A stretch of DNA of 59,578 nucleotides from Patescibacteria group bacterium (GTDB lineage Bacteria; Patescibacteriota; Gracilibacteria; UBA1369): the NCBI GenBank assembly GCA_018825335.1, contig JAHJEW010000051.1, positions 1-59,578 of the forward strand, read 5' to 3'. The translations under genes and the position numbers were made by a program. A model generated the notes under the pieces. It was not told the origin of the DNA and made no database searches. It saw nothing but the letters and a program-made list of their open reading frames with translations. Shown here piece by piece: positions 1-23,729 of the stretch (positions within the stretch are counted from its first letter, which is position 1; each line of letters opens with the position of its first letter).

Positions 1-488
1 GAATAATCGAGCACATGAAAAAAACGGGAGAATGGGGCCAATTCTTCCCCATGTCCATCTCCCCGTTCGGATACAACGAAACCATAGCAAACGAATACCA
101 TTCACTCACAAAAGATCAGGCTCTTGCCATGGGCGCAAAATGGCACGATGAAGACACAACAAATCGTTATAAAGGGCCGAAAATTGCAATTCCAGATCAC
201 ATTGCAGATATAAAAGACGAAATAACAAAACAAATACTTTATTGCGAAACCTGCGAGAAAAACTACAAAATAATCCCGAAGGAACTGGATTTTTACAAAA
301 AAATAAAAATCCCGCCACCCCGCAGCTGCCCCGACTGCCGCCATAAAGCCCGTCTCGAGCTAAAAACTCCTCGCCATCTTTACCCCCGCGCATGCGCCAA
401 ATGCGCGACGCCAATCCAAACCACTTACGCCCAGGGCCGCCCGGAAAAAGTATATTGCGAAAAATGCTATTTGAAAGAAGTATATTGA
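1..488 (+). CDS. Cys-rich double zinc-ribbon family paralog, copy 1 (C-terminal fragment, 5' end outside window)
   Basis: The frame is open back to nt 3 (IIEH precedes the listed Met). It aligns with the C-terminal ~160 aa of the ORFs at 2824, 11150, 12798, 14461 and 16151 (EWGQFFP..SPFGYNET.., CETCEKNYKIIPKELDFYKK..CPDCRHKAR) and ends in the family tail VYCEKCYLKEVY*. Confidence 0.85.
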   Translation, partial: IIEHMKKTGEWGQFFPMSISPFGYNETIANEYHSLTKDQALAMGAKWHDEDTTNRYKGPKIAIPDHIADIKDEITKQILYCETCEKNYKIIPKELDFYKKIKIPPPRSCPDCRHKARLELKTPRHLYPRACAKCATPIQTTYAQGRPEKVYCEKCYLKEVY

Positions 489-540
489 AAACCAACTTTT
501 ATACGGTAAACGGCGCCGGGGGAGAACAGAACCTTATGTT

Positions 541-762
541 TTATTGAGCCTGTTTCAAAAGGAATTTGAAGAATATTTTGAAAGCTCGAAAAATTAAAAT
601 AAACACTACGGAAGCAACAATAATCATTCCTATCCAAAGTAATAAAAGAAAAAGGAAAGACATTTTTTCAAACTCATATCCAAAGAAACCCAGTATCATC
701 TCCGTACAACCAATCCAAAGAGCTATCACCAAAAAAAGAACAAACTGAAGATCAATGAACAT
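541..762 (-). CDS. small hydrophobic protein with two predicted TM helices
   Basis: The 73-aa ORF has two long hydrophobic stretches. Its start overlaps the stop of the upstream 453-aa gene by 11 nt on the same strand. AT-rich like its neighbour. Confidence 0.4.
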   Translation of the reverse strand: MFIDLQFVLFLVIALWIGCTEMILGFFGYEFEKMSFLFLLLLWIGMIIVASVVFILIFRAFKIFFKFLLKQAQ

Positions 763-2113
763 AAATAGTTTGATTTAAGTGAATTTCAATTTCAAAGTTG
801 TGAATAATTCCCAAATCTTCACCTTTATCAAGTTCATTGATAATGCTCTGTTTAATAAATTGACCTGACAAAAATGATGGTGTGTCTTCTTTTTGAAAAT
901 CATAAATGTCAAAAAGTATGAATTTAACTTCAAATTTATTGTTCCCGCTTGATTTTGCATTGTATTCGATTTTTTTGATTCCATGGAGTGAGGTTGCTAA
1001 ATCTGGGGAATCAAAGTTTATTTGCCCTTTCATAGTTTCATCATGCTCAAAATCTTTTGGCCAAATCTCGCCTTTTAAAATTCCATTGGCGATCTTCTCC
1101 TGTAATTTTTCGAGGATTTTAATATAAGAAGGATTTTTTTTAATTAATTTTACAAGAGCGTTATTTGGGTGAAAAATAAGCGGAGATGGATTATCTTCAA
1201 TTGCGTGTCTTATAAATTGAGCTGAAAAAGGTTTATTAAAGACTTCAAAATAAGCAATAATAGTATTGACTATATTTATGATATAGCTTTTCAAGTCAAC
1301 CATTGATCTTATGCTTGCCAGAAACTCCTGATTGTCAAAAAAGAGAATATTCAGGCTGGAAATTTCCGGCTCTTCATCATACCAAAGTTCAATGGCGTTT
1401 TCAAAAGCAATAGGATTCGATATATCCTCATTCGTAATAGTAAGAATATCGAACTCTTTCAGATCTCCCGAGAAATAGAAGTTTTTGTATTTCTTTGAAG
1501 TTTGAGCTTGTTCGTTATTCCAAATTTTACCGTTTACAACCACTTTTAGGTTGTCTCCATCTGTACCCCCTTTTGTTTTAGCGCTTTTTGTATTAACTCC
1601 GAGAACGAAGCTTTTGGTATAAGATCCAAGGAAAACGAAGCTTAACCAGGGAATTCCTTTGCTTTCGCTTTTAATATTTTCTGAAGGCTTTAAATTATTG
1701 AGTTCGAAATTATTTTCTTCGATTTCAAAAACTTCAATGCTTTCTAAGGTAGGTGTATTGTCAGCAAAGAACCTCAATATATGATCACCTTTTTCTAGGG
1801 TGACGAAATAATGGATTGTTTTTATTCCCCCTCTTAGGCTTGCTCCGTTCCAGCTTGCCGATGTGCCAAAACCTTTCCATGAAATTTTTTCCTGATGATT
1901 CTCATATTTACCAAAATCAAATCCATCCAGGACCATCTTGAGATCATCGTCATCTGTAGAGTTATTTTGTTTTGCATTTTTTGCCGAAGCTTTAATTTTG
2001 ATTGCATAAAGCCCTTTTCTTGACACCTGAAATTTAGTCTCCGCAGAATTCCATTCGTATATGTTACCGCCTGGAGCTTTTAATTGAAGATTTTTTTGAA
2101 AGATGTTTTTCAT
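752..2113 (-). CDS. hypothetical protein with two similar N-terminal segments (possible beta-sandwich repeats) and a C-terminal domain
   Basis: Uninterrupted 453-aa ORF in an AT-rich segment. There is an internal repeat by eye (DDDDLKMVLDGFDFG..ESIEVFEI versus TDGDNLKVVVNGKIW..ISSLNILF). No signal peptide and no motif I recognise. Confidence 0.7.
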   Translation of the reverse strand: MKNIFQKNLQLKAPGGNIYEWNSAETKFQVSRKGLYAIKIKASAKNAKQNNSTDDDDLKMVLDGFDFGKYENHQEKISWKGFGTSASWNGASLRGGIKTIHYFVTLEKGDHILRFFADNTPTLESIEVFEIEENNFELNNLKPSENIKSESKGIPWLSFVFLGSYTKSFVLGVNTKSAKTKGGTDGDNLKVVVNGKIWNNEQAQTSKKYKNFYFSGDLKEFDILTITNEDISNPIAFENAIELWYDEEPEISSLNILFFDNQEFLASIRSMVDLKSYIINIVNTIIAYFEVFNKPFSAQFIRHAIEDNPSPLIFHPNNALVKLIKKNPSYIKILEKLQEKIANGILKGEIWPKDFEHDETMKGQINFDSPDLATSLHGIKKIEYNAKSSGNNKFEVKFILFDIYDFQKEDTPSFLSGQFIKQSIINELDKGEDLGIIHNFEIEIHLNQTIYVH

Positions 2114-2823: not shown

Positions 2824-4497
2824 ATGCATAAATCCTGCGGCCAGTGTAAGCAATCATTCGAAATTGCCAACGAAGACCTAAAGTTTTACGACAAAGTTTC
2901 CCCAATTTATAATGACAAAAAATATCTCCTCCCCCCGCCAACACTATGCCCGGACTGCAGACAAAGACGGCGACTGGTATGGCGCGGTGAAAGAAAATTA
3001 TATAGCCGAAAATGTGACCTTTGCGGCAAAAACATAATTTCAATCTTCGCAACAAACAGAGGGTATACAGTTTACTGCCCGCCCTGCTATTGGAGCGACA
3101 AATGGAATCCCGCGGATTTCGGAAGATCTTACGATCCTTCCAGGACATTTTTCGAGCAATACGATGATCTCCTAAAATCGGTTCCACTCCAATCTTCCTA
3201 TTTAATTGAAGCAGTTAATAGTGAATTCAACAATAACGCGTCCTATTTAAAGAACTGCTACCTTATGAGTTCTTCAAATTCAAATGAAGACTGCTATTAT
3301 GGCTATTTTGTGAACGATTCAAGGGACTGCATGGACTGCACTTCCGTGAATAAATCCGAAAAATGTTATGAAAGTATTGAATGCGTTTCCTGCTACGATT
3401 GCAGATACTGCAAAAATTGCGTCAACTGCACGGAAAGTTATTTCCTGACGAACTGTATTTCCTGCAATAATTGTTTTGGATCAATAAATTTGCGTCACAA
3501 AAAGTACTGTTTTTTTAATGAGCAACTCACTAAAAATGAATATGAAAAGAAAATCAGTACATTTCTTAGTGGAGACAGAACGAAAGTGGAAGAAATGCTC
3601 CAGAAAGTTCGTGAGCATAATCTAAAATATCCTTTTCCGTACATGATCGGTGAAAACAATGAAAACGTCAGCGGAAATTCCATTTACAGGTCAAAAAACA
3701 GCAACACCTGTTTCGACTGCGATGACATTGAAGATTGTAAATATTGCTATCAACTAATGAATGCAAAAGATTGCTACGATATTATGTCATGGGGACGAAC
3801 CGGAGAGTTATTTTATGAATGCGTTGCAACCGGCGCAAATGGCTACAATAACAGCTTTACAGCAATAAACGTCGCAGGAATAAATAACTTATATTCATAC
3901 ATGTGTATGCATTCCAAGAACCTTTTTGGATGCGTATCGGTCAAAAAATCCCAGTACATGATTCTAAATAAAAAATATTCACCCGCCGAATTTGAAACAC
4001 TTGCCGCAACCATTATAGAAAACATGATCCGGACAAAAGAATGGGGAGAATTTTTCCCGGAAGCACTTTCTCCCTTCACTTATAACGAGTCTCTGGCCGA
4101 CGATTTCTTTCCTTTAACAAAGGATCAGGCAGAAGCAATCGGTGCCAAATGGTACGACGAAACCAATAAAGCATCCGAACAAAATTCAAAAAAAATTATT
4201 CCGGTCGCAATTCAGACAGTTACGGAAGATATACTAAAAACTATCCTAACCTGCCAATCCTGCCAAAAAAACTACAAAATAATCCCGCAGGAACTGGATT
4301 TCTACAAAAAAAACACCGTCCCCCTCCCCATTAATTGCGTGGACTGCCGCCATAAAGCCCGCCTGGCCCTGCGCAACCCGCGCCACCTATTCAACCGCGC
4401 CTGCGCCAAATGCGCGGCGCAAATCCAGACCACCTACGCCCCCGACCGCCCCGAAACCGTCTACTGCGAACAGTGCTACCTAAAGGAAGTCTACTAA
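2824..4497 (+). CDS. Cys-rich double zinc-ribbon family paralog, copy 2 (full Cys complement in both terminal modules)
   Basis: 557-aa ORF with an ATG start. N-terminal module: CGQCKQSF..FY..LCPDCRQRRR..RKCDLCGK..VYCPPCYWSDKW. Two CxxC-repeat blocks, then EWGEFFP. C-terminal module: CQSCQKNYKIIPQELDFYKK..CVDCRHKAR..CAKCAAQIQT..VYCEQCYLKEVY*. Confidence 0.9.
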   Translation: MHKSCGQCKQSFEIANEDLKFYDKVSPIYNDKKYLLPPPTLCPDCRQRRRLVWRGERKLYSRKCDLCGKNIISIFATNRGYTVYCPPCYWSDKWNPADFGRSYDPSRTFFEQYDDLLKSVPLQSSYLIEAVNSEFNNNASYLKNCYLMSSSNSNEDCYYGYFVNDSRDCMDCTSVNKSEKCYESIECVSCYDCRYCKNCVNCTESYFLTNCISCNNCFGSINLRHKKYCFFNEQLTKNEYEKKISTFLSGDRTKVEEMLQKVREHNLKYPFPYMIGENNENVSGNSIYRSKNSNTCFDCDDIEDCKYCYQLMNAKDCYDIMSWGRTGELFYECVATGANGYNNSFTAINVAGINNLYSYMCMHSKNLFGCVSVKKSQYMILNKKYSPAEFETLAATIIENMIRTKEWGEFFPEALSPFTYNESLADDFFPLTKDQAEAIGAKWYDETNKASEQNSKKIIPVAIQTVTEDILKTILTCQSCQKNYKIIPQELDFYKKNTVPLPINCVDCRHKARLALRNPRHLFNRACAKCAAQIQTTYAPDRPETVYCEQCYLKEVY

Positions 4498-4515
4498 CCG
4501 ACAAGCGTTGTTGAC
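4498..4515. repeat. boundary hairpin motif, copy 1 (CCGACAAGCGTTGTTGAC)
   Basis: Starts 1 nt after the TAA of paralog copy 2. The stem is CGACAA/TTGTTG with a GCG loop. Confidence 0.7.
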
Positions 4516-6492: not shown

Positions 6493-8103
6493 TTAAACCA
6501 GTGATTTTTCGTATTCAGATTCCGTCACAATATTTTTCTTTTCCGGATGCTCAAAAAAAACAGAGACCTTTTCATCACCCACCAAAATCTCTTTGGGAGT
6601 AAAACTTGTATCCATTATTTCCATGCGCTGTTTGTATCTAAGAACCGGACTGACCCTTGGTAACGCAATAAAGTGCTTTTTATAATAATCCAGTTCCTGG
6701 CTTAAATACTTAAACTTCTTCCCTGAAATAATGCAGCTTTGTACCGATCCGGACTGTTCGCCATTCGTAGCCCCAGCACCGACCTCACACTCCCTTCCAA
6801 AATAATCCGACTCCTTATCATCAAAAAGATCAAAAGCAATCGTGTCTTCATACGGAAACGGACTTAAAGACATTGGGAAAAACTTTCCATATTCACCTCT
6901 TTTACGCATTAAATCACGCAAAACAGCGGTCCGTTCAATATATTCCTCCTTGGAATATGGCTTGTTAAAAATATGATACTGCTTATTTTTCAGCCCGATG
7001 CACCCAAAACAATTACTACTGTTCAGACATAAATAACAATATTCCATGAATGAACTATGCCACACAAAAGCGCAATTCTTCACTTCATAAGAAGCAATGC
7101 CCGTTGCCACGCACTGAAAACAATTTTCCACTCTATCGTTGCACATAAAAGAACCAACCATGTCTTTCGCCATGGCGCACTGAAAATTATTATATGCATC
7201 TTTCATGTCAAAACTTTCGAAACACCGCAGAGTACTGGCCGAATTACGCAGATAATTGCCGCTGGCGTTTTCACAATTATCCATTATTGCGTACGACATG
7301 GGAGCGCGAGCCACAATCTTTTCCCGGAACTCTTTCTTCATCTCTAAAACTTTTGAATAATCGCGAAAATCAATGTCCAGCATAAATTTCCCATACTGCT
7401 CCTTGGTCAGTTGCTCATTATTTACGCAATATTGCTTATTCCGCAGGTTTGAGCACATAAAAGAGTTCTGAACATTCCGGCAATTATACGAAAAAGCCGA
7501 ATCCGAAACCTGCCTGCAATTAAAGGAAAAACGGACATTATAGCAATTGAATAAATAGACGCTGTCATAAATCAGCTCGGAGTCCATAATCCAGTAAACG
7601 TCAACGCAATCACGGGAATTATATATCCTGGTCGAGTAATAAACGTCCCGACAATTAAGCGCGTCAAAAACAAGATAGCAGTTCTTCAAGCCTTCGCAGT
7701 CATGGCAATATTCCGCATTTTCCTGAAGATTGGAAAGCAGGGACACCACCGGCGCCCTCTTTTGAAGTTCCTTGAATTGCTCGAAAAACGGCTTGTTAAA
7801 ATCAATTTCAAGGAAAGGTGAGGACCAGTCGTCGCTGTACCATTCATCATGACTAAAAACTGGACAAAGAGCATTTTCGCTATAAACGGAAACGATTTTC
7901 TTTCCACTCTTGCTTGAAGTCCGTTCGTAAAGACGTTTGTTGGGATACCATGCCATAACCTGTCTCATACTTTCATTGGGGTCGATTTTGGCAAGATCAA
8001 CGCCAAATTTATCAGATAAATAAGCGAGTAAATTTTGCATACACCAAGTATACCCAATAATGGGCACACCCGTAGTAGAGCGGGCACCCAAAACACTGGA
8101 CAA
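6493..8103 (-). CDS. Cys-rich family paralog, copy 3 (divergent; both terminal zinc-ribbon modules have lost their Cys ligands)
   Basis: It retains EWYSDDW, IDFNKPFFEQFKELQKRAPV, the central CxxC-type repeats, GLKNKQYHIFNKPYSKEEY and GEYGKFFP..SPFPYE, but the ends lack CxxC pairs. An alternative start is the Met at 8040 (MQNLLAYL). Confidence 0.8.
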   Translation of the reverse strand: MSSVLGARSTTGVPIIGYTWCMQNLLAYLSDKFGVDLAKIDPNESMRQVMAWYPNKRLYERTSSKSGKKIVSVYSENALCPVFSHDEWYSDDWSSPFLEIDFNKPFFEQFKELQKRAPVVSLLSNLQENAEYCHDCEGLKNCYLVFDALNCRDVYYSTRIYNSRDCVDVYWIMDSELIYDSVYLFNCYNVRFSFNCRQVSDSAFSYNCRNVQNSFMCSNLRNKQYCVNNEQLTKEQYGKFMLDIDFRDYSKVLEMKKEFREKIVARAPMSYAIMDNCENASGNYLRNSASTLRCFESFDMKDAYNNFQCAMAKDMVGSFMCNDRVENCFQCVATGIASYEVKNCAFVWHSSFMEYCYLCLNSSNCFGCIGLKNKQYHIFNKPYSKEEYIERTAVLRDLMRKRGEYGKFFPMSLSPFPYEDTIAFDLFDDKESDYFGRECEVGAGATNGEQSGSVQSCIISGKKFKYLSQELDYYKKHFIALPRVSPVLRYKQRMEIMDTSFTPKEILVGDEKVSVFFEHPEKKNIVTESEYEKSLV

Positions 8104-8154
8104 ATAAAGAAAAAAGTGTTATAAATACACCCAATATTGCCATATAAAGATTGG

Positions 8155-10197
8155 ATGCCAAAAAATACACCGAAACAAGAACAATCCGGAATCTTAAAAG
8201 ACGCCAAAATGCCGCTGCAGCTATGCCGTGGAACCGTCCATAAAATCAACGGCAAAAAAGTCGAAAACTGCTGGGGAAAGCCAATACCGGAAGGCAACTC
8301 CGGCGCGCTGTATATTGGAAAAACGATTATCGAACCAATTTCCACCAGAATAAGAGCGGTTCTAACGGGCAAAGAACCAGGCCCGCAAAACATTTATTCG
8401 GAGGAATTCATTCAAAGCGCGCTGGAAAACCTGGGGCCGCATTTAAGAATTGGAAATAAAATTTGCATTGTGCAGGCGCGTTGTCTTAGCGAAATTTTCA
8501 ACGGCCCCACGGACACGGAAAACGCCCTTACAATAGAGCGGCAACGTGATTTTATCCGGAAAATTGCGAAAAAAATCGGCATAAAAGAGGAGCAACTGGA
8601 ATTTATAGATCTGGAAGATCAGGTGCGCCACTCCCAGCTTTTTTTGGCTGTAAGGATGTCAATAGATCCGGCAACGGGAAAATTTGATCCTGAAATGGCT
8701 TTTGGCGCAGACAGGGACGAGGATGAAAAAAATGAACCGTTCAGATGGCCGGAATCCGTTTCTCTGGACATCGCCAAATGCCTTTATGAAGCATACAAAG
8801 CCCATCCGGAGTTTGCGGACCTGTTCAGGGAAACAATTCCTAAAGGTCTGGCGGGCGACCGGGAAGATCAAAGCGATCAGCAAAACTACTATTCCCTTGT
8901 GGAAATCGCATGCAGAATTGCGGATCTAAAACACGGAACAAGCTTTCAATGCGGCGCCGGCAGGCAGGCGCGCTACGATAAAATCATTGAGGATCTTCGG
9001 AGAGGGGAAAAAGGACAATTCAAAAAATACCGCGAATTGAAGCCAATATTTGATCTATTAAAAGGAGCCACATTTCAAACATTGCACTTCTTCACGGATG
9101 CCGATTACAGAGGAAAAAAACTGCGCAGAACCAGGGCGCGAACCAAAATAGCCGCCATGGCCGCCATTGGTTTAACCACCCTTGGCACGGCTGCATTCCA
9201 CTCATGCACGTCAGAAATGAGGCAGAGGGAAGAGCAGGAACAACTAATGGAGGAAAAAATCCGGGAGGGAACCAGGCATATAAGATTCAGATTCGAAGGT
9301 TTTTTCATGGATGAACAGGAAAATGTAAAAATGACTTTATCGATTGCAAATTCGGTTCTGGGTAGATTGAAGGAACGCTATCAGATGGGCATATTCATGA
9401 ATAGCGAGCTTAAACCTCTGGTGATAGAGTTTCTTCTGGCAAGCACCGGTCTGTTGCAGCAGGCAAATCAGGACGCGGGAGTGGTAAACGAACTGGCCGA
9501 TCTTTTTGTAAAAAAACATTCACTGTTTCTGGCCCAAAAAGGATTGAATACGACGCAACCTTTCGCCAATTTTACGCCGTACATGGACAAAATCAAAGAA
9601 GCTGCGGTCGGCATGGACGATTTTCAGCTCAATACAATTCTTGCCTCACCCAACCCGGGTAATTTCGACGACGTTGAATCAGTAAACGATCTACATCTAA
9701 AAAAAATCGGAAAATTCACACCATCGGTTCAGTACGGATGGACGCAAACTTTATATATATACGAAAAAAACGGGGAAACCCACATCCTGGGCCGCGACAT
9801 GAGTAAAGAAGATCCAAAAACGGTGGACAGGGTTTTTACGGCTAAAGAAGGGCGCGAGCTGGCACAACAATTCCTTAGCGGATTGCGCAAATACGACACT
9901 CTGCAGATAGCCGACTTAAGGTCGACTCTTTCCAACATGTGCTATAACAAATACAACCCCGGACCAAAAGAAAAAAGTGAGCCGGCCGAATCAAATCCGT
10001 ACAGCCCGTACACGTTTCATTACAAAGATTCACTCGGCGAGTTTGATTATTACCTGCGGCAATCTTACTTCATGGACAAAACAATCAATCACTCCATAGA
10101 CATTATACTTGCGCGCCGCCCCGGAGAGTCGCAATATACATACGAAACAGGCATGGAAGTCGCCCGAAAATACTGTAATATCATGAAATACAGATGA
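8155..10197 (+). CDS. hypothetical ~680-aa protein with one central TM segment
   Basis: Long uninterrupted ORF. The track start at 8137 is TTG and the first ATG is at 8155. A hydrophobic segment IAAMAAIGLTTLGTAAF lies mid-protein and a Glu/Gln-rich segment follows it. The stop overlaps the ATG of the TrmB-like gene (ATGA at 10194-10197). No recognisable catalytic motif. Confidence 0.7.
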   Translation: MPKNTPKQEQSGILKDAKMPLQLCRGTVHKINGKKVENCWGKPIPEGNSGALYIGKTIIEPISTRIRAVLTGKEPGPQNIYSEEFIQSALENLGPHLRIGNKICIVQARCLSEIFNGPTDTENALTIERQRDFIRKIAKKIGIKEEQLEFIDLEDQVRHSQLFLAVRMSIDPATGKFDPEMAFGADRDEDEKNEPFRWPESVSLDIAKCLYEAYKAHPEFADLFRETIPKGLAGDREDQSDQQNYYSLVEIACRIADLKHGTSFQCGAGRQARYDKIIEDLRRGEKGQFKKYRELKPIFDLLKGATFQTLHFFTDADYRGKKLRRTRARTKIAAMAAIGLTTLGTAAFHSCTSEMRQREEQEQLMEEKIREGTRHIRFRFEGFFMDEQENVKMTLSIANSVLGRLKERYQMGIFMNSELKPLVIEFLLASTGLLQQANQDAGVVNELADLFVKKHSLFLAQKGLNTTQPFANFTPYMDKIKEAAVGMDDFQLNTILASPNPGNFDDVESVNDLHLKKIGKFTPSVQYGWTQTLYIYEKNGETHILGRDMSKEDPKTVDRVFTAKEGRELAQQFLSGLRKYDTLQIADLRSTLSNMCYNKYNPGPKEKSEPAESNPYSPYTFHYKDSLGEFDYYLRQSYFMDKTINHSIDIILARRPGESQYTYETGMEVARKYCNIMKYR

Positions 10198-12797: not shown

Positions 12798-14423
12798 ATG
12801 CAAAAAACCTGCCGCCAGTGCGCAAAACAATTCAAAATCACTCGGGAAGATCTGGAACATCTGGACAAAGTCAGCCCAATAATCGGCGGCCAAAAGCAGC
12901 AAATCCTACCGCCTACCCTCTGCCAGGACTGCCGTAGGCAAAGGCGTCTGGCCTTCAGAAACGAACAATACATCTACCTCCGCAAGTGCGACCTTTGCAA
13001 AACGGATATCATTACTATCTATTCACCGGACAAACCGCTGCCCGTATACTGCAGCAAATGCTGGTGGGGCGACGACTGGGACCCACTTGAATGCGGCCGG
13101 AACTTTGATTTTTCCAGACCTTTTTTCGATCAATTCAAAGAACTGTCAGCAAAAGTCCCCGTGCCGCCCAACATGGTTTTTTCGTCCGAAAACTGCGAAT
13201 ACTGCGGCTTCTGCGTCAACTCCAGAAACAGCTATTTATCCAGCCGCGTCGGTGACAGTGAAGACATCTATTACTCATACCTGGCCGTCGGATCGCAAAA
13301 CTGCACAGACTGCTACAATATCATAAACTGCCAGCTCTGCTACGAATGCATCGATTGCTGGAACTGCTACGCTACCGTTTTCAGTCGTCTTTGCAAAACC
13401 ACCAGTGACTCCGCTTTTTGTTACGATTGCATAGGATGCAAAAACTGTTTCGGATGCTTTGGCCTGCGAAACGCCGAGTACTATTTCTTCAATCAAAAAT
13501 GCAGCAAAGAGGAATATGAAAAGAAGGTGCGCGCCCTGCAGCTTGAAAAGCCGGAAAACCTTGAGCGCGCAAAAGAAATGTTCGAAAAATTCATACTGGA
13601 AAAACCACATCGTGCCACCATAATAAACAACTGCCAAAACGTTTCCGGCGATTTTATTGTCGATTCAAAGGATGCTCACGACTGCTACGACATCGAAAAA
13701 ATCGAATCCGCAAAAAACGTCTGGTCCAGCGAATATTCAAAAGACATTTACGATTGCGATTTCATATACGGCGGCGAAAAATGCTACGAAAACATGTCCA
13801 ACGCCAATAGTAACGGCATTTTATTTTCCGCGGTCGCCATTACCGGCGTAAACGACTGTCTTTACTCCGCATTGGTTTGCAACGGCACCCAAAACTGCTT
13901 TGGCTGCGCATCGCTCAAAAAACAAAAACACTGCATCCTCAACAAACAATACTCAAAGGAAGAGTATGAAAATCTTGTCCCCAAAATTATTGAGCACATG
14001 AAAAAAACAGGCGAATGGGGTGAATTTTTCCCGGCTACGCTTTCCAATTTCGCCTATAACGAAACCGTAGCCCAAAGCTATTTCCCGCTAACAAAAGAGC
14101 AGGCACTCACAAACGGCTTTATGTGGAAAGATAGGGAAACGCAGCAAAAACACGCCGCCGCGGAAAACCTAATAACCTGCAAAACCTGTAATAAACAGTT
14201 CAAACTCGTAGCCGCGGAAATAGAATTCTACAAAAAAATGCACCTGCCGCCCCCCGCAAAATGCCACGACTGCCGCCACGCCGCGCGAGGTGCTCTACGA
14301 AGACCCCGCCGCCTATACCCTCGCACCTGCGACAAATGCCAGGATCCCATACAAACCACATTTGCCCCAACCCGTCCCGAAACCGTATACTGCGAATCGT
14401 GCTACCTAAAAGAAGTTTATTAA
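12798..14423 (+). CDS. Cys-rich double zinc-ribbon family paralog, copy 5 (full Cys complement)
   Basis: 541 aa with about 43 Cys by manual count. Starts 7 nt after copy 4 ends. All family motifs are present. Confidence 0.9.
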   Translation: MQKTCRQCAKQFKITREDLEHLDKVSPIIGGQKQQILPPTLCQDCRRQRRLAFRNEQYIYLRKCDLCKTDIITIYSPDKPLPVYCSKCWWGDDWDPLECGRNFDFSRPFFDQFKELSAKVPVPPNMVFSSENCEYCGFCVNSRNSYLSSRVGDSEDIYYSYLAVGSQNCTDCYNIINCQLCYECIDCWNCYATVFSRLCKTTSDSAFCYDCIGCKNCFGCFGLRNAEYYFFNQKCSKEEYEKKVRALQLEKPENLERAKEMFEKFILEKPHRATIINNCQNVSGDFIVDSKDAHDCYDIEKIESAKNVWSSEYSKDIYDCDFIYGGEKCYENMSNANSNGILFSAVAITGVNDCLYSALVCNGTQNCFGCASLKKQKHCILNKQYSKEEYENLVPKIIEHMKKTGEWGEFFPATLSNFAYNETVAQSYFPLTKEQALTNGFMWKDRETQQKHAAAENLITCKTCNKQFKLVAAEIEFYKKMHLPPPAKCHDCRHAARGALRRPRRLYPRTCDKCQDPIQTTFAPTRPETVYCESCYLKEVY

Positions 14424-14439
14424 CCGACAACGCTTGTCT
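14424..14439. repeat. boundary hairpin motif, copy 3 (CCGACAACGCTTGTCT)
   Basis: Starts 1 nt after the TAA of paralog copy 5. Confidence 0.7.
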
Positions 14440-14460: not shown

Positions 14461-16137
14461 ATGCAAAAATCCTGCCAAAAATGTAAAACACCGTTTGAAG
14501 TCTCCACATTCGAAAAAGACTTTCTACTTAAAATAAGCCCAAAAATCGGAGAAAAACAGTACATGATCCCGGAGCCGCAAATCTGCCCGGACTGCCGCCT
14601 TGCCGAAAGGACCGTCCAAAGAAACGAGCAAAATTTCTATCACAACAAGTCCGCAATATCAGGAAAACCACTGCTAGCCCTATACGCACCAAATACGCCC
14701 TGGGGCAAAGAGTACAAAGTCTATACCAAGGAAGAATGGAATAGCGACAACTGGGACGGCCTTGATTACGGCAAGAATTTCGATTTCAACAGGCCATTTT
14801 TTGAGCAGTATAAGGAACTGAACGACCAAATCCCAAAAGTGAACATGGTAACTGTAAGCAACGAAAATTCCCCATACACCACAGGCACCGCATATTGCAA
14901 AAATTGCCACCTAATAAACTGCTCGGAAAATTGCGAAGACTGCTATTACGGAAAACTTATTCAGGACTCAAGAGATGTAATAGATTCGGACTTCGTCTAC
15001 GACTCGGAGCTTTTATACCAATGCTTCAACGTGACAAAATGCTACGACTGCAAATACTTATCATACAGCCAAAACTGCTCCGGCTGTTCTTTCTCGGACA
15101 ATTTACGAGGATGCAAAAACTGCTTTCTATGCACAAACCTTGTAAACAAAGAATACCATTTCATGAATAAGCCGCTAAAAAAGGAAGAGTACGAAGCAAA
15201 AGTAAAAGAATTCATGAGCTCAACCGCCAATATCCAAAAGGCAAAAGAGCAATTGAAAAAACTTAGAGAACAGCGCACATACAAATACGCAAACGTCGTA
15301 AATTGCGAAAACTCAACCGGTGATTTCCTTACAAACTGTAAAAACTGCACCGACTGTTACGACGTAAACGACAGCGAAGATTGCAAATACGTCACCGTAG
15401 GAGTAAACGTAAAAGATCTGGTGGACTGCTCAAATATGTATTTAAAGCCGGAATTAAACTATCAAGTCCTTGGTACAATAGAAACATACAATGTTATTTT
15501 CGGAGTGTTCGTCTTTCACAGTCAGAATGTAATGTATAGTCAGTTTTGCTTTAACTCGCAAAATCTTTTTGGATGCAGCGGGCTAAGGCAAAAGAAATAT
15601 TGCATTTTAAACAAGCGGTATTCGCAGGAGGAGTACAATCAACTGGTGCCAAAAATAATTGAGCACATGCAGAAAACGGGTGAATGGGGAAGATTTTTCC
15701 CAATAGAAAGTTCACCCTTCGGATACAACGAAACCGTTGCAAATCAATATTTGCCACTCACAAAAGAAGAAGCATTAAAGCGGGGATACAAATGGAAAGA
15801 GCCCGACATGAAAGAATATAAAGCCCAAAACTGCAATGTCCCGGAAGAAATCGGCCAGGTGAAAGATGACATAATACAGGAAACTCTGGCCTGCAATAAC
15901 TGCTCAAAGAACTACAAAATCATTCCACAGGAACTGAAAAGATTAAGAACAATAGGCTTACCCATACCAACAAAGTGCCCCGACTGCAGACAAATGGAGA
16001 GAATGTCCATGCGCAATCCACGCCGCCTATATGCTCGTACCTGCGACCAATGCGCCGCCCCTATCCAAACCTCATTTGCCCCCTCCCGCCCAGAAACCGT
16101 ATACTGCGAAAAGTGCTATTTGAAAGAAGTTTATTAA
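14461..16137 (+). CDS. Cys-rich double zinc-ribbon family paralog, copy 6
   Basis: 558 aa with family motifs throughout. The second Cys pair set of the N-terminal module is lost (NKSAISGK, KVYTKEEW). Confidence 0.9.
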   Translation: MQKSCQKCKTPFEVSTFEKDFLLKISPKIGEKQYMIPEPQICPDCRLAERTVQRNEQNFYHNKSAISGKPLLALYAPNTPWGKEYKVYTKEEWNSDNWDGLDYGKNFDFNRPFFEQYKELNDQIPKVNMVTVSNENSPYTTGTAYCKNCHLINCSENCEDCYYGKLIQDSRDVIDSDFVYDSELLYQCFNVTKCYDCKYLSYSQNCSGCSFSDNLRGCKNCFLCTNLVNKEYHFMNKPLKKEEYEAKVKEFMSSTANIQKAKEQLKKLREQRTYKYANVVNCENSTGDFLTNCKNCTDCYDVNDSEDCKYVTVGVNVKDLVDCSNMYLKPELNYQVLGTIETYNVIFGVFVFHSQNVMYSQFCFNSQNLFGCSGLRQKKYCILNKRYSQEEYNQLVPKIIEHMQKTGEWGRFFPIESSPFGYNETVANQYLPLTKEEALKRGYKWKEPDMKEYKAQNCNVPEEIGQVKDDIIQETLACNNCSKNYKIIPQELKRLRTIGLPIPTKCPDCRQMERMSMRNPRRLYARTCDQCAAPIQTSFAPSRPETVYCEKCYLKEVY

Positions 16138-16150: not shown

Positions 16151-17809
16151 ATGTCGCATCCAAAACAAATCTGCAAGCAATGCAAAACGCAGTTTGAGGT
16201 TATTCCAAAAGACCTGGAGTTTTACAAGAAAATGAATGTGCCGGCCCCGGCGCATTGTCCAGATTGCAGAGTGCAAATGCGCTTGGCATGGCGTAACGAA
16301 AGAAGGCTTTTTACGCGAAAATGCGACCTGTCCGGCAAACAAACAATCTCTTTCTATCCACAAAATTCTCAATATAAAGTATATGCCCAGGACGTCTGGT
16401 GGTCAGACAAATGGGACGGCAAAGACTACGGCCGCGATTTCGATTTCAACAGACCATTTTTCGACCAGTTCGCAGAGCTTCTTGCAGACGTCCCCCACAT
16501 GGCAATGGTAATTTCACACGGAGAAAACAGCGATTATTGCCCTTACGCCGTTTATTACAAAAACAGCTACATGTGCGTTTCAGGAGTAAAAGGAGAAGAT
16601 ATATATTATTCATTCTGGACCAACGACAGCCGCAGCTGCACCGATTGTTATGCCTGCTTTGAATCCGAACTTTGCTACGAATGCGTTCAATGCATCAACT
16701 TATACAACTCATTTTTCTGTAAAGACTGCGACAATTCAAACGACCTGGCTTTTTGCGTAAATTGCGACGGATGCAAGAACTGCATAGGCTGCTACGGGCT
16801 TAGGCATAAGGAATATTACGTGTTCAATAAAAAGGTTACGCCGCAGGAGTATGAAAAAATCAACAAAGAAATACGCGAAAGTCCGGAGGCGCTTCTGGAA
16901 ATGAAGGCCAAATTTCAGCAACATCTATTAAACTACCCCCAGCGCGCACTCCAGATGGTCAATACAGAAAACTGCACAGGGGACTACCTGCTAAATTGCA
17001 GAAACAGCCATGACTGCTACCTTTCCGAAGGCCTGGAAGACTGCGCCTACATGTGGAATATTCCGGACGGATGCAAAGATTGTATGGATTTAAACTTCTC
17101 TCCAAAAAGTGAACTTACCTATAACAGCATAAGCACGGTCAATGGATCTAATTGCCTTGTCGCCCCTTTCTGCTGGGATACAAAGGATTCATTTTACTCC
17201 TTTCAGTGTTTCTACTCAGGGAATCTGCTTGGTTGTGTTGGATTAAAAAAAGAAAAATATTGCATCTTAAACAAGCAATATTCAAAGGAGGAATACAACA
17301 GGCTGGTGCCAAGAATCATTGAACATATGAAGAAAACAAATGAATGGGGCGAATTTTTCCCGATGGAAATAAGCCCATTTGGTTACAATGAAACAATCGC
17401 GCAGGACTATTTCCCACTTTTAAAACATGAAGTTAAGAAGCGCGGATGGCGCTGGTCGGATGAACAGCCATCGGTACCGAAAGTGGAAAAAACAATAATA
17501 GCGGCTCAAATACCGGCAAACATAAAAGATGTCCCGGACGACATTGTAAATTGGGCCATATTGTGTGAAGAAAGCGGAAAACCGTTCAGAATAATTCCGC
17601 AGGAACTGACATTTTATAGAAAAATGGGATTACCCATTCCGCGCCGCCACCCGAACCTGCGCCACGCGCAAAGGCAGGCGTCGCTAAACCCACGCCATCT
17701 GTTCAACCGAAATTGCGACAAATGCGGCGCGCCCATGCAAACGACCTTCGCCCCCTCCCGCCCAGAAACCGTATACTGCGAAAAGTGTTACCTGAAAGAA
17801 GTATATTAA
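16151..17809 (+). CDS. Cys-rich double zinc-ribbon family paralog, copy 7
   Basis: 552 aa. The N-terminal second site is degenerate (RKCDLSGK, KVYAQDVWW). The C-terminal first site is degenerate (LCEESGK, RRHPNLRH). The tail RPETVYCEKCYLKEVY* is retained. Confidence 0.9.
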   Translation: MSHPKQICKQCKTQFEVIPKDLEFYKKMNVPAPAHCPDCRVQMRLAWRNERRLFTRKCDLSGKQTISFYPQNSQYKVYAQDVWWSDKWDGKDYGRDFDFNRPFFDQFAELLADVPHMAMVISHGENSDYCPYAVYYKNSYMCVSGVKGEDIYYSFWTNDSRSCTDCYACFESELCYECVQCINLYNSFFCKDCDNSNDLAFCVNCDGCKNCIGCYGLRHKEYYVFNKKVTPQEYEKINKEIRESPEALLEMKAKFQQHLLNYPQRALQMVNTENCTGDYLLNCRNSHDCYLSEGLEDCAYMWNIPDGCKDCMDLNFSPKSELTYNSISTVNGSNCLVAPFCWDTKDSFYSFQCFYSGNLLGCVGLKKEKYCILNKQYSKEEYNRLVPRIIEHMKKTNEWGEFFPMEISPFGYNETIAQDYFPLLKHEVKKRGWRWSDEQPSVPKVEKTIIAAQIPANIKDVPDDIVNWAILCEESGKPFRIIPQELTFYRKMGLPIPRRHPNLRHAQRQASLNPRHLFNRNCDKCGAPMQTTFAPSRPETVYCEKCYLKEVY

Positions 17810-17933
17810 AAAAACGCCCCGGAAAGCCTTCCGAAGAGTTTTAACAGGGCGCAGATTACGGATTGTAATCCTTACCTCCACCACCGAAGATGTAATAAAT
17901 ACACCTCAGGACATAATTATACGGGTTGACCGG

Positions 17934-18002
17934 TGGTGGAGGCAAGGGGAGTTGAATCCCTGGTAACAGGATGATAAGCCCGTCTTCGCGCCCGCTGCCC
18001 CC
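17934..18002 (-). ncRNA. tRNA-like / tmRNA-TLD-like element (acceptor stem with G3:U70, T-arm, encoded ACCA; no normal D-arm)
   Basis: Minus-strand RNA: GGGGGCA GCGGGCGCGAAG ACGGG CUUAUCAU CCUGU UACC AGGGA UUCAACU CCCCU UGCCUCC ACCA. The 7-bp acceptor stem pairs fully, with a G:U at 3:70 and discriminator A73. The T-loop UUCAACU is identical to the E. coli tmRNA T-loop as I recall it, and the 5' GAAGACGGG resembles the tmRNA UUCGACGGG motif. Weaknesses: A53:C61 mismatch, a 12-nt D-region and an 8-nt loop. Confidence 0.45.
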
Positions 18003-18076
18003 ACCCCGTATCAGCAATAGCAAATATACAAAAGAAAGATTATGCTTTATTAAGCTGTTGATAAAATTTTTCTCAC

Positions 18077-19741
18077 ATGGAAAAAACCTGTAATCAATGC
18101 ACCGCAAAGTTCAAGGTCGACGAAAACGATCTCGCCTTCTACGATAATATCTCGCCCACCTTCGGCAACAAAAAAATCCAAATCCCTCCGCCAACCCTCT
18201 GCCCCAAATGCCGCCTGCAGCGCCGCCATGCTCGCCGCAACGAATACAATTTATACCCGCGTAGCTGTGACCTTTGCAGCAAATCCATAGTTACAATCTA
18301 CCACCCGGCGGCGCCCTTCACCGTCTATTGCAATAATTGCTGGTGGAGCGACAAATGGGAGGGCGCGGACTACGGCATCGACTACGACGAATCCATACCT
18401 TTCTTCGACCAATTCCAAAACCTTCAAAAAAAAGTCCCGCGCATGGCAATCTGGAACCACGCCTGCGAAAACAGTGACTACACAAATCACTCATCCAATC
18501 TAAAAAACTGCTACCTAGCAACCTGCGCGATCTACAGCGAAAACATCTACCACTCGCGCTGGGTAATAAGATGCAAAGACCTCTGCGACTGCTACCAAAT
18601 GATTAGCTCGGAACTTTGTTACGAAACGTCATACACTCATGGATACAAAATCATTAACGGCTATTTTGCGGACAGCCGCGACTGCACCTTTGTTTACGAC
18701 TGCAAAAGCTGCTCAAATTGCTTTATGTGCTGGAATCTTCGTCACAAAGAGTACTGTATAGAAAACAAACAATATTCAAAGGAAGAGTACGAAAAAATTA
18801 TGGCCGGAATAAATATTGGTTCATACAGCCAATATCAAAAATACAAAAAGCAATATCTGGAAATTGTCAGAACCAACGTTATCAAGCAAGGTGCAAGACT
18901 AACCATGTGCGAAAACAGCAGCGGCGAACTCCTATACAAATGTAAAAATGTCCAAGATTCATACGGCTGCGTAGAATCCCGCGATTGCCGTCATTCCCAC
19001 GAAAGCGAAGACCTAAAAGACTGCTACGACACCTGCGAAACTGCGTCCAATTGCGAGCTGCAATATGAAACCAGCGGATGCGATCACTCCAATAATGTCA
19101 TATGCTCAAGTCGTTCCTCCAATGTAAGCGGCGCTTTCTACACCGAAGGATGCAGCAATGGCGGAAACCTCTTTGGCTGTATTGGACTTAACCGGAAAAA
19201 CCACTGCATCCTGAACAAACAATACACAAAAGAAGGGTACCAAAAACTGGCGGCAAAAATCGCCCAAAACATGCAAAAAAACAATGAATGGGGCGAATTT
19301 TTCCCAATTTCAACCTCCCCCTTTGCCTACAACGAAACCACTGCCCATGAAGACTTCCAAATAACAAAAAAACAGGCAAAACAAAACGGCTGGCAATGGC
19401 TGGAAGTCGACCACAAACAATACCTCCTTCAAACCTGCACCCTCCCCGACGACATCAAAGATACGCCGGATTCCATCACCAAAGAAATCCTCGCTTGCCC
19501 ATGCGGCAAAAACTACAAAATCGTCCTACCCGAACTGGAATTTTACAGAAAAATGAACCTGCCAATCCCCCGAAAATGCCCGCAGTGCAGACGAAAAGAC
19601 CGCAAAAAATTGCGTCCGTCCCTTTTCACGCAAACCACAATAAAATGCCAAAAATGCGCCCGGCCAACCATAACCGGCCTAAATCCCGACTACCCGGGCA
19701 TAACCTACTGCGAAAAATGCTATCTTAAAGCGGTGTATTAA
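18077..19741 (+). CDS. Cys-rich double zinc-ribbon family paralog, copy 8 (more divergent core)
   Basis: 554 aa. The N-terminal module is intact (CNQCTAKF..LCPKCRLQRR..RSCDLCSK..VYCNNCWWSDKW). The tail is ITYCEKCYLKAVY*. Confidence 0.9.
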   Translation: MEKTCNQCTAKFKVDENDLAFYDNISPTFGNKKIQIPPPTLCPKCRLQRRHARRNEYNLYPRSCDLCSKSIVTIYHPAAPFTVYCNNCWWSDKWEGADYGIDYDESIPFFDQFQNLQKKVPRMAIWNHACENSDYTNHSSNLKNCYLATCAIYSENIYHSRWVIRCKDLCDCYQMISSELCYETSYTHGYKIINGYFADSRDCTFVYDCKSCSNCFMCWNLRHKEYCIENKQYSKEEYEKIMAGINIGSYSQYQKYKKQYLEIVRTNVIKQGARLTMCENSSGELLYKCKNVQDSYGCVESRDCRHSHESEDLKDCYDTCETASNCELQYETSGCDHSNNVICSSRSSNVSGAFYTEGCSNGGNLFGCIGLNRKNHCILNKQYTKEGYQKLAAKIAQNMQKNNEWGEFFPISTSPFAYNETTAHEDFQITKKQAKQNGWQWLEVDHKQYLLQTCTLPDDIKDTPDSITKEILACPCGKNYKIVLPELEFYRKMNLPIPRKCPQCRRKDRKKLRPSLFTQTTIKCQKCARPTITGLNPDYPGITYCEKCYLKAVY

Positions 19742-19742
19742 C

Positions 19743-19757
19743 CAACAAGCGTTGTTG
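19743..19757. repeat. boundary hairpin motif, copy 4 (CAACAAGCGTTGTTG)
   Basis: Starts 2 nt after the TAA of paralog copy 8. Perfect 6-bp stem with a GCG loop. Confidence 0.7.
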
Positions 19758-22050: not shown

Positions 22051-22065
22051 CGACAAGCGTTGTCG
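22051..22065. repeat. boundary hairpin motif, copy 5 (CGACAAGCGTTGTCG)
   Basis: It fills almost the whole 17-nt gap between the TAG of the VirD4-like gene and the stop of the convergent paralog copy 9. Confidence 0.7.
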
Positions 22066-22067
22066 GC

Positions 22068-23729
22068 TCAATACACATCTTTCAGATAGCACTTTTCGCA
22101 AAGAATTCTGAATTTTACCGCGTCATAAGTGGTTGAAATATTTACCCCGCACTTACTGCATTTTTCATCATGTAGTTCATTCACGGCCAGAACGCCTGAA
22201 CGTTCTTCCAGCCTTTTCATGGGAGATACATGCGGAATCGGGAAGTTATTTTTCCTGTAAAAGTCCAGCTCCTGTTTAATAATTTTAAACTTTCTTCCGG
22301 TTTTTTCACACTTAAGTTCCGTTTCCAGAATATCATCTTTAACATCTTTAATATTATCGGGAACCTTATATGAAGGCACGAAATCCGGCGCTTCTTTTTC
22401 TTCCGCCCACCTGTAACCTTTCTTCACGGCATCTTCTTTTGTCAGCGGAAAAAATAAATTATCCTCACTTTCATTGTAATAATTCGGGGACATCGACTTG
22501 GGGAAAAACTGACCATATTCACCATTTTCCATCATCTGCTTTTTAATCCGCCGAACCATGTCGAAATAATCTTCTTTTGAATACTGTTTATTTAAAATGC
22601 AATATTGCTTTCGCTTCAATCCAACGCACCCAAAGCAATTGCCCGATCCATGCGTAACAAACATGCAGTATTCAAGGTCATGCACATCCGGCCAGGCTTC
22701 ATTGCAGAACTTAATATTATAGGCGTTATCCCCGACGGTGATTGAGTTATAAACAAGCTCGGAATTATTCCCGAACATCGCCTGGACAAAGCTGGATTTC
22801 GCGTCGGTAAGCCAGATGCAGTTCTCCATGTCTTCCGTATTTTGCATCAAATAAGAATCACGCGTGTTCTTAACATTAAACATATTATTACCGGTCGAAT
22901 TCTCAATGTTCTTACCGAAAATATTTTTGATCGGAAAATCTTTACTGAAATTCCTGAATTTCTTCAGCTCGCTCTGCACAACCTTATAACTCCCAAGGTC
23001 AATTCCGGCTATCTTTTTTTTGTAATCCTCTTTTGATAACTGCTTGTTGTAAAAACAGTACTCCTTGTTCCTCAAATTCACGCATCCAAAGCAGTTTGAA
23101 CAGGCCTGACAATTGTAAAGAAAATAAGAATCGCTGCATCCAAAACACTGCTCTGAAAAATGCAGATTATAACCCTGGTTAACATTAACACACTCATAAC
23201 AAAACTCGGAATTGGTCACAAGTGTGCTATCAACAACATTATTACAGCTATTCAAATAGCTGGAAAACATACAATCTTCATTAAAAGACGCGCTAAAAAG
23301 AAGATAACAATTCTTCGCCTTTGTAATCCCGTTCGTATAATCACTATTCTCCATAAGACTCTTATTCAGGGCCAGATTCGGCCACGGAACGTTCTTTGCA
23401 AGAACCGCAAACTGCTTGAAAAAAGACTTGGTAAAATCATACTCCATGGCATAGTCCGCGCCGTCCCACTCATCCGACTCCCAAATCCCAATATCATAGA
23501 CTTTTTGTCCCGATTCGGGAGGTACGCAACTTAAAATCGGCTTCCGTGAAAAATCACATTTTGTATGATACAAATACAGGCGATTCCTGAAATAAAGCAT
23601 GTGACGAAGCCGTTCATGCGGATGGATTACCGGTAAAGGAATGCCATTTTCGCGACAATACTCCTGCTCCGCAACGGAAATAACAAAGCTCTTTCCTGTT
23701 TCAATGCACGTTTTCTGTATTGGATTCAT
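22068..23729 (-). CDS. Cys-rich family paralog, copy 9 (divergent; start refined to internal Met)
   Basis: MNPIQKTCIETGKSF from the ATG at 23729 removes the overlap with the divergent dGTPase-like gene. Family motifs are present (WESDEWDG, YDFTKSFFKQF, GLKRKQYCILNKQYSKEDY, GEYGQFFP, tail ILCEKCYLKDVY*). Several zinc ligands are replaced (IHPHERLRH, HVSPMKRL). Confidence 0.85.
   Translation of the reverse strand: MNPIQKTCIETGKSFVISVAEQEYCRENGIPLPVIHPHERLRHMLYFRNRLYLYHTKCDFSRKPILSCVPPESGQKVYDIGIWESDEWDGADYAMEYDFTKSFFKQFAVLAKNVPWPNLALNKSLMENSDYTNGITKAKNCYLLFSASFNEDCMFSSYLNSCNNVVDSTLVTNSEFCYECVNVNQGYNLHFSEQCFGCSDSYFLYNCQACSNCFGCVNLRNKEYCFYNKQLSKEDYKKKIAGIDLGSYKVVQSELKKFRNFSKDFPIKNIFGKNIENSTGNNMFNVKNTRDSYLMQNTEDMENCIWLTDAKSSFVQAMFGNNSELVYNSITVGDNAYNIKFCNEAWPDVHDLEYCMFVTHGSGNCFGCVGLKRKQYCILNKQYSKEDYFDMVRRIKKQMMENGEYGQFFPKSMSPNYYNESEDNLFFPLTKEDAVKKGYRWAEEKEAPDFVPSYKVPDNIKDVKDDILETELKCEKTGRKFKIIKQELDFYRKNNFPIPHVSPMKRLEERSGVLAVNELHDEKCSKCGVNISTTYDAVKFRILCEKCYLKDVY

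Follow-up and report, generated by a model that had tools for sequence, protein, structure and literature searches.

A conserved Patescibacterial gene module that combines arrays of cysteine-rich paralogues with a TrmB-like regulator and a VirD4/VirB4-superfamily ATPase

Contig JAHJEW010000051.1 of a Patescibacteria group bacterium from the Gracilibacteria (assembly GCA_018825335.1) encodes nine members of a cysteine-rich paralogue family, given here the working name Z, together with a TrmB-like winged-helix regulator, T, and a soluble P-loop ATPase of the VirD4/VirB4 superfamily, V. The window referred to throughout is the whole 59.6-kb contig (59,578 nucleotides), 13.5 kb of which is occupied by Z genes. 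The region exemplifies a conserved chromosomal module of Peribacteria/Gracilibacteria-type Patescibacteria, which consists of one or more T genes, an operon-like array of ancient Z paralogues and, often, V at the 3' end. In the explanation favored here, the Z proteins would be binding scaffolds that are expressed together, that serve V as adaptors, accessory factors or cargo, that probably touch nucleic acid and that are regulated by T; the probability that we attach to this reading is about 0.35. An original prediction, made from the letters of the window, had described the nine genes as a local expansion of double zinc-ribbon proteins within an accessory-looking region. It missed the recurrent partners T and V, both of which are present in the window.

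The Z array and its recurrent partners

The nine open reading frames (ORFs) are found at the predicted coordinates (Table 1) and are homologous, as reproduced by the ORF list, a nine-way alignment and a family hidden Markov model (HMM), which matches all nine with scores of 256-848 bits. Full-length protein identity to the copy at 12798, the reference for the alignments, ranges from 28 to 57%, which places the homology far above chance, and at the DNA level the repeats shared by the copies reach only 60-80% identity. Because the copies diverge to this extent, assembly duplication is ruled out without recourse to reads, and an assembly artefact was rejected as an explanation of the array. The motifs described at the outset are present, namely WWSDxWD, DFDFxRPFFEQF, GEWGEFFPxxxSPFxYNET, the tail RPExVYCExCYLKEVY ahead of the stop codon and, twice per protein, NCFGCxGLxxKxYCIxNKQYSKEEYE. 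The count of 43 cysteines in the 541 residues of the reference copy is exact, and the stated spacers (7, 37, 13 and 267 nt) are confirmed. No 19-residue segment reaches a Kyte-Doolittle value of 1.6 in any copy, in agreement with the claim that the proteins carry no N-terminal hydrophobic segment; neither a Sec signal nor a transmembrane helix is present. The mechanical ORF list starts two copies further upstream, with a TTG at 11135 and a GTG at 23822, but the ATG starts at 11150 and 23729 are favored because the family N-terminus reads M-x-K-x-C-x-x-C. The divergent copy at 6493-8103 could start either with a TTG at 8103 or with an ATG at around 8040; this gene is not considered a pseudogene, since a 59%-identical orthologue exists in a related locus (L028).

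The array is not peculiar to this genome. Two to ten Z copies lie within about 20 kb in 57 of 78 related loci, so that the family is multi-copy rather than single-copy in relatives; related species have 9-10 copies in about 20 kb, single metagenome-assembled genomes (MAGs) hold at least 15-16 copies over two contigs, and the number per locus ranges from 1 to at least 10. The best identity within a locus has a median of 44%, whereas for 188 of 204 Z proteins the best match is in another genome, and the same array layout is seen across order- to class-level lineages. Since the paralogues are closer to proteins of other genomes than to their own neighbors, these comparisons identify the array as a chromosomal module that is ancient and stably inherited, and not as a recent diversifying burst. 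The proposal of a local expansion in an accessory region is therefore not upheld: the paralogues are ancient, the layout recurs, and the remainder of the window is ordinary chromosome, with genes for PPDK, GDH, DnaJ, PBP1, NrdR and UvrD. Among 137 same-strand Z-Z junctions, 40 measure 10 nt or less or overlap, and 13 of these are TAATG/TGATG overlaps. Such junctions point to operons with translational coupling, and hence to many paralogues being made together.

The family is large and its distribution narrow. By word-indexed search, Z has more than 7,155 relatives. The best 120 are all 491-616 residues long (E 0 to 1e-144), derive from Patescibacteria (Peregrinibacteria/Peribacteria, Gracilibacteria and Berkelbacteria) and are annotated as 'hypothetical' or 'zinc-ribbon domain containing protein'; the label 'Zn ribbon nucleic-acid-binding protein' is given to one member by one source. 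A profile search run exhaustively against 1.84 billion representatives yielded at least 2,523 clusters (50% identity) at E<=1e-30, and at least 580 stretches among one-genome-per-species contigs encode a Z relative. The 78 fetched loci are almost all from Peribacteria, Peregrinibacteria, Gracilibacteria and Abawacabacteria, with single cases in Paceibacterota and Staskawiczbacteria, and full-length members are recovered in a Gracilibacteria MAG when it is translated with code 25. The Z family is thus almost confined to Patescibacteria (Peribacteria/Peregrinibacteria, Gracilibacteria, Abawacabacteria). It is absent from 50,697 phage genomes, IMG/VR contributed only one marginal locus, and the region harbors no integrase or transposase; a phage or mobile origin was rejected on these grounds. 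In literature searches, neither the Z family nor a T-Z-V module was encountered.

When all non-family ORFs of 79 Z loci were clustered, T and V were the only two recurrent non-syntenic neighbors. T is found in 36 of the loci (47 copies), typically divergent and in front of each Z sub-array, and V in 24, usually directly after the last Z gene and on the same strand. Both accompany arrays rather than singletons, with T in 34 of 58 arrays versus 2 of 21 singletons, and V in 23 of 58 versus 1 of 21. V is 60-88% identical among relatives, in stable synteny, and the six closest metagenomic V homologues (identity of at least 51%) all flank Z genes. The assignment of T to the TrmB family is supported by a score of 33.8 bits against a cut-off of 25.6 over residues 11-77; its C-terminal 170 or so residues are without a family assignment.

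V has the catalytic features of its superfamily, with intact Walker A (GKSGTGKS) and Walker B (DEFQ) motifs, a Pfam match to TraG-D_C (TraM recognition) and NCBIfam matches of the VirD4/TraD type. It also matches phrog_5156 over nearly its full length (6.5e-69), and has distant homologues in large Bacillus phages. The AlphaFold2 (AF2) model of V has a mean predicted local distance difference test score (pLDDT) of 72. With Foldseek, the whole chain matches TrwK/VirB4 (E=8e-10) and the ATPase domain matches TrwB (E=4e-8, TM-score of 0.52 on the target), HerA matches are weaker, and V also resembles Cagbeta structurally. Like a type IV coupling protein (T4CP), V thus combines a P-loop domain bearing Walker A and B with an all-alpha domain; no hydrophobic segment that could serve as an N-terminal membrane anchor was detected in it. 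Residues 1-280 (window 19813-20650) form a soluble alpha/beta domain, with pLDDT values of 80-94, in place of that anchor. A precomputed annotation assigns this N-terminal domain to PF26449, which a Pfam scan of V (E<=0.001) did not report.

Across Patescibacteria, VirD4-like T4CP homologues are close to ubiquitous, with 5,713 homologues in 2,918 genomes, of which only 148 lie near virB4 (PMC12102498). The homologue in Ca. Southlakia epibionticum is non-essential for epibiotic growth, and the authors could not rule out that T4CPs have been exapted for other functions (PMC12102498).

Architecture and fold of the Z proteins

A Z protein of about 550 residues is made up of an N-terminal module of two fingers, a domain A, a helix, a domain B and a C-terminal module of two further fingers. 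Pfam and NCBIfam recognize only the terminal fingers, each terminal module being a tandem of the types zf_Tbcl (PF13451) and zf_Tbcl_2 (PF23477)/TIGR04272. The match to zf_Tbcl is borderline, at 24.5 bits against a gathering threshold of 24 (residues 459-497 of the 12798 copy), and extends to 32 of 75 family members at E<=0.05. The last finger has the CxxC-x17-CxxC spacing of zf_Tbcl_2/TIGR04272 (C511, C514, C532 and C535 in the 12798 copy, 99-100% Cys in 229 full-length Z proteins, over which Zn-site conservation was counted), and 55 of the 75 members match these families at E<=0.05; scores of 23.7 versus 27 bits for PF23477 and 18.5 versus 36 for TIGR04272 lie below the curated cut-offs. By its profile scores, this finger is a divergent relative of zf_Tbcl_2/TIGR04272 and not a trusted member. 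The finger also superposes on phage 'putative zinc-ribbon domain' proteins with a root-mean-square deviation of 0.7 A over 43 residues (Foldseek). The zf_Tbcl-type families, whose function is likewise uncharacterized, nevertheless consist of small, stand-alone or repeated finger proteins, unlike Z, and the similarity covers about 160 of its 550 or so residues, leaving the central 350 or so outside.

The description of Z as a double zinc-ribbon protein holds in that there are fingers at both ends, but with two fingers per end there are four potential Zn sites rather than two. The outer fingers are near-universal (N1 87-100% Cys, C2 99-100%), whereas the inner fingers N2 and C1 are often lost, with only 28-57% Cys in most of their columns. 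The C-terminus is fixed, with 215 of the 229 proteins stopping exactly six residues past the last CxxC and 181 of the 229 ending in Tyr. Profile-profile comparison shows the N-terminal finger module (residues 4-89) to be homologous to the C-terminal one (460-536; E=3e-24), and domain A (112-247) to domain B (261-397; E=1.8e-30), an internal duplication. The greatest conservation is found in the solenoid caps and in residues 375-445 (12798 numbering), which follow domain B and form the most conserved stretch, NKQYSKEEYE..IIEHMKKTGEWGEFFP..SPFxYNET, and not in the fingers. Within this region, a single conserved helix (ILNKQYSKEEYE..IIEHM) at residues 380-404 (for example, window 13935-14009) matches Med15_N (KIX) in 9 of the 75 members, with E down to 4e-8, but only 25 of the 72 profile positions are covered and the match is probably spurious.

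Shorter forms of Z also exist. Core-only proteins of about 300-320 residues, which have the two solenoids without fingers, constitute a subfamily of hundreds of clusters, and variants of intermediate length occur too. In one locus (L086, 4415-6745), a 133-residue stand-alone finger-module gene lies between two core-only genes, an arrangement that on its gene order is a natural fission of the Z architecture and provides a fission-fusion link between its parts. Since core-only and stand-alone finger forms both exist, the double solenoid is the family core and the fingers are functionally linked add-ons. Core-only variants adjoin V in five loci (L086, L083, L091, L056 and L057). Among isolated cases, one member (P0248) has an N-terminal GNAT-like extension and another (P0198) an unassigned C-terminal extension.

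The fingers raise the question of whether Z proteins act simply as nucleic-acid binders, as independent regulators, nucleoid factors or RNA-handling factors to which V and T would be merely syntenic. Each Z protein has two basic treble-clef/zinc-ribbon modules (+3.5 and +6.8, flanking acidic solenoids of -5 and -4), the database label of one member names nucleic-acid binding, and the V family is broader than Z. The fingers are nonetheless dispensable, given the hundreds of core-only variants and the frequent loss of Zn ligands, the highest conservation lies elsewhere in the protein, and T and V track arrays rather than singletons. We consider this role unlikely.

The central domains appear to form very narrow beta-solenoids. 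Their Cys-rich columns follow a strict period of 3, within a 12-residue register that gives nine coils per domain, with a [KE]-[ND]-C-[YF] ladder recurring in every coil and every third coil residue being C, S, V or L. An AF2 model of the 12798 copy, built on a 75-sequence alignment (pLDDT 84.8, predicted template modelling score (pTM) 0.87), has beta bridges roughly every 12 residues. Most central Cys columns are 20-85% Cys, with S, V, L and I as substitutes, and domain B is far poorer in Cys than the homologous domain A. The mean phi for Cys co-occurrence is 0.0 at i+3, -0.23 at i+6 and +0.16 at i+12, values that are inflated by sequence relatedness and so are supportive rather than conclusive. 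Because the central cysteines are exchangeable with S, V, L and I and co-occur in this pattern, they are read as core rather than as CxxC metal knuckles or disulfides, and they are probably ladder-forming buried residues and not metal ligands; burial is inferred from the periodicity and the substitution patterns. The view that the central CxxC-type repeats are zinc sites is thus probably incorrect, as the lattice has period 3 and shows no coupling at i+3.

Z proteins could instead be metal-storage or redox proteins in which the Cys-rich center binds many Zn ions or Fe-S clusters. There are 25-43 Cys per protein, in runs such as CxxCxxCxxC, and Cys 214/217/220 and 370/379 are 85-98% conserved. 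The invariant, coupled ligand sets of Fe-S or multi-zinc proteins were not seen in the central domains, however: in most of the columns Cys accounts for just 20-80%, cysteines are much scarcer in the homologous domain B, coupling is not positive at i+3 and is negative at i+6, and no Fe-S family is matched. A metal-binding center therefore seems highly improbable.

The closest geometric parallel is the antifreeze protein of the beetle Tenebrio molitor (TmAFP; PF02420, coils TCTxSxxCxxAx), which has the same short coil of 12 residues, small inward residues at every third position and many cysteines. The i/i+6 Cys pairing of that family is not seen in Z, where the negative i+6 value gives the cross-coil disulfides of a TmAFP-like helix no support. 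Z likewise has no Thr-x-Thr ice-binding ladder, and is apparently cytoplasmic. No profile match to PF02420 was obtained in a scan of 75 members and Foldseek returned no antifreeze structure; one member (P0030) has a precomputed PF02420 match. The resemblance to the beetle helix thus appears to be one of geometry only.

In keeping with the claim that the family is not assignable to a characterized protein, profile and structure searches gave only the terminal fingers and matched no housekeeping family: there is no match beyond the fingers in Pfam, NCBIfam, PADLOC, PHROGs, a PDB profile search or Foldseek against PDB and BFVD. Foldseek of the Z model gave no PDB match at E<=0.001 and only finger-level matches in BFVD, and the PDB profile search gave nothing apart from a weak LIM-like match to the last finger. 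A weak match of the repeats to phrog_15341 (1e-7) was judged uninformative. On the model and these searches, Z is a probable new protein fold.

The two faces of the coils differ in conservation. In domain A, register positions 11, 12, 1, 2 and 3 are conserved, with column entropies of 1.2-2.1 bits, while positions 5-9 on the opposite face reach 2.8-3.4 bits, with single columns up to 3.9 of a maximum of 4.3. This bears on the possibility that Z proteins are structural subunits, joined at their ends or along their sides in a hetero-oligomer or filament within the small cell. The operon-like arrays with translational coupling, the parallel retention of ancient paralogues, the solenoid architecture with conserved caps and the homologous modules at both ends, which could pair head to tail, would all suit such a role. 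A hypervariable face would be unusual in a structural lattice, though, copy number varies widely between loci, and neither bactofilin nor another known polymer-forming solenoid shows similarity to Z, so that this role is improbable.

A model for the module and its alternatives

In the favored model, Z proteins would be scaffolds whose targets differ from one paralogue to the next, as set by the variable solenoid face. A shared partner, most probably the neighboring ATPase V, would be bound through the conserved face, the segment at 375-445 and the terminal finger. Z proteins could serve V as adaptors that recognize cargo, as accessory factors or as the cargo itself. Judging by the Arg/Lys-rich finger modules, nucleic acid may be part of the material handled, and the TrmB-like proteins would switch Z sub-arrays on or off.

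Several points weigh against this model. The functional link between Z and V is drawn from gene adjacency, and nucleic-acid binding is suggested by charge. The solenoid geometry is derived from sequence periodicity and from an AF2 model in which the central pLDDT is only 63-75. Wide conservation is limited to the N1 and C2 Zn sites, and one copy in the window has no Zn site left, so that the core function may not require the fingers. In the fetched DNA, over half of the array loci lack V; contig ends account for some of these absences, and a genome probably carries a single V alongside several arrays. No positional orthology of individual Z copies relative to V was found. The V family is also much broader than Z, as only 11 of 80 metagenomic V loci have a Z gene, and more distant V homologues in other lineages of the candidate phyla radiation (CPR) are preceded by a helix-turn-helix (HTH) protein of the sigma-70-region-4 type. 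The adjacency of Z and V could, in view of these other pairings, be clade-specific synteny.

Across those 80 V loci (L079-L158), the upstream protein, of about 357 residues with an N-terminal sigma-70 region-4-like HTH, is present in 25, and tandem duplication or splitting of the V homologue is frequent in other CPR lineages.

The nearest known counterparts are pairs of a T4CP and its partner, such as TrwB-TrwA, TraD-TraM, Cagbeta-CagZ and VirD4 with XVIPCD effectors, in which the gene for a VirD4/VirB4 ATPase lies, as here, beside genes for proteins with a conserved terminal module. However, V is without the N-terminal membrane anchor typical of T4CPs, no relaxase or channel genes are nearby, Z has no similarity to TrwA, TraM, CagZ or XVIPCD, and the neighbor of V is an array of 5-10 paralogues rather than a single protein.

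Alternatively, Z proteins could be translocated effectors, which V as a coupling protein would hand to a Patescibacterial type IV secretion system (T4SS) for delivery into the host bacterium. Recognition would then fall to the conserved C-terminal finger and tail, and binding of host targets to the variable face. The Z arrays adjoin a T4CP homologue, the C-terminus is fixed, no Sec signal is present and one solenoid face is hypervariable. Moreover, the T4SS substrates of Patescibacteria are unknown and relaxases are rare, but in the Gracilibacteria class VirB6 homologues are reported to be absent and the other T4SS components to be unlinked (PMC12102498). The window contains no T4SS genes, and across the 79 loci no channel genes recur within +/-10 kb of Z, and no relaxase genes recur. 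V has no membrane anchor, and its whole chain is as VirB4-like as it is VirD4-like. The paralogues are ancient and retained, without rapid turnover, and share a single architecture without an exchangeable toxin domain. Tight folding would, in addition, make the Zn modules poor substrates for a T4SS. The fixed C-terminus is the only feature of Z that might bear on recognition by a T4CP, and delivery as an effector is judged unlikely.

A broader likeness is to the pentapeptide-repeat, leucine-rich repeat and ankyrin effector families, which are also repetitive solenoids with one conserved and one variable face. As in these scaffold families, copy number is expanded in host-dependent bacteria, and the surface of Z is also acidic. 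The coil length of 12 in Z differs from the 20, 24 or 33 of these families, to which no homology was detected, and their members are scattered and fast-evolving whereas the Z paralogues are ancient and tandem.

The module could also provide defence against phages or mobile elements, with Z proteins as diversified sensors and the HerA/VirD4-like ATPase as motor or effector. In PADLOC-DB, V has only a weak mad8/HerA match (mad8, 2e-12), HerA defence complexes are among its structural matches, and one face of Z is variable. On the other hand, PADLOC-DB returned no match for the three Z copies tested at E<=0.1, V is highly conserved and in stable synteny, the ancient paralogues show no island-like turnover, and the module contains no nuclease and no Sir2- or TIR-type effector. 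Defence therefore appears still less probable than a structural role. The roles in effector function, host interaction or defence that had been put forward at the outset are favored by none of the tests, and keep the low probabilities given here.

With scaffolds serving V as the preferred reading, a further step is to regard T, the Z array and V as an undescribed ATP-driven system specific to Peribacteria/Gracilibacteria-type Patescibacteria, with the new-fold Z proteins as adaptors or cargo of an orphan T4CP homologue. This step is tentative, and is less probable than the scaffold role itself. The module is rated as new in that no known kind of system accommodates it, which partly reflects ignorance of its function. 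If the proposal is correct, the Z proteins would be the first candidate partners for the widespread VirD4-like ATPase of CPR bacteria that is not linked to a T4SS, and they offer a testable partner set for that enzyme. Genomes of CPR/Patescibacteria are only about 1 Mb in size, and the clade devotes much of its coding capacity to Z despite these small genomes; as the family is both costly and old, it is likely to be central to the lifestyle of these organisms. The probable new fold would be one in which Cys acts as a ladder-forming core residue in an apparently cytoplasmic protein, and the full-length, core-only and stand-alone finger forms together provide a family definition for at least 2,500 'hypothetical' clusters.

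Other features of the window

The coordinates of the Z genes, their partners and the surrounding elements are collected in Table 1.

Table 1. Features of the Z-T-V region, with positions in the window
Feature	Position	Strand	Evidence or remark
Z copy, partial, C-terminal 161 aa	3..488	+	family HMM 256 bits; both C-terminal Zn sites intact
453-aa ORF	752..2113	-	no Pfam, NCBIfam, PADLOC or PHROG match
Z copy	2824..4497	+	family HMM 778 bits
Z copy, divergent	6493..8103	-	family HMM 477 bits; all four Zn sites and conserved tail lost
U686, 686 aa, upstream of T	8137..10197	+	no Pfam, NCBIfam, PADLOC or PHROG match
T, TrmB-like winged-helix regulator, 256 aa	10194..10964	+	Pfam TrmB E=3e-8
Z copy	11150..12790	+	family HMM 726 bits
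Z copy, 541 aa, reference for alignments	12798..14423	+	AF2 pLDDT 84.8, pTM 0.87
Z copy	14461..16137	+	family HMM 754 bits
Z copy	16151..17809	+	family HMM 781 bits
267-nt spacer	17810..18076	+	z = -3.07; no Rfam family match
Z copy	18077..19741	+	family HMM 688 bits
V, soluble VirD4/VirB4-superfamily P-loop ATPase, 745 aa	19813..22050	+	Pfam T4SS-DNA_transf 7e-12, TrwB_AAD_bind 4e-9
Z copy	22068..23729	-	family HMM 647 bits
Palindrome copies	4499-4513, 11109-11123, 11126-11140, 14425-14439, 19743-19757, 22051-22065		CGACAA-SSS-TTGTCG

U686 is found upstream of T in only two other loci (L050 and L064), so that its membership of the module is doubtful.

The 15-nt palindrome occurs six times in the window, against 0.25 expected by chance, and all six copies are in spacers abutting Z or V, often directly after a stop codon. 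Neither the remaining 36 kb of the window nor any of 158 related loci contains the palindrome, which may be a genome-specific hairpin, a repetitive extragenic palindromic (REP)-like element, an operator or a relic of a duplication boundary. In other genomes, TGTA-N10-TACA is present in 10 of 29 divergent T-Z intergenic regions (L001-L078), with the extended form TTGTAGAA-N4-TTCTACAA, and is a candidate operator there. As this element is absent from the window and the window palindrome is absent elsewhere, a shared TrmB operator was rejected, and no conserved operator could be defined.

Two large genes that are unrelated to the Z finding lie further along the window. One encodes a bacterial alpha-2-macroglobulin of 2,119 residues (38543-44902, minus strand), and the other a 1,628-residue protein with three SLH domains (52652-57538, plus strand). 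Giant envelope proteins such as these two are typical of CPR bacteria.

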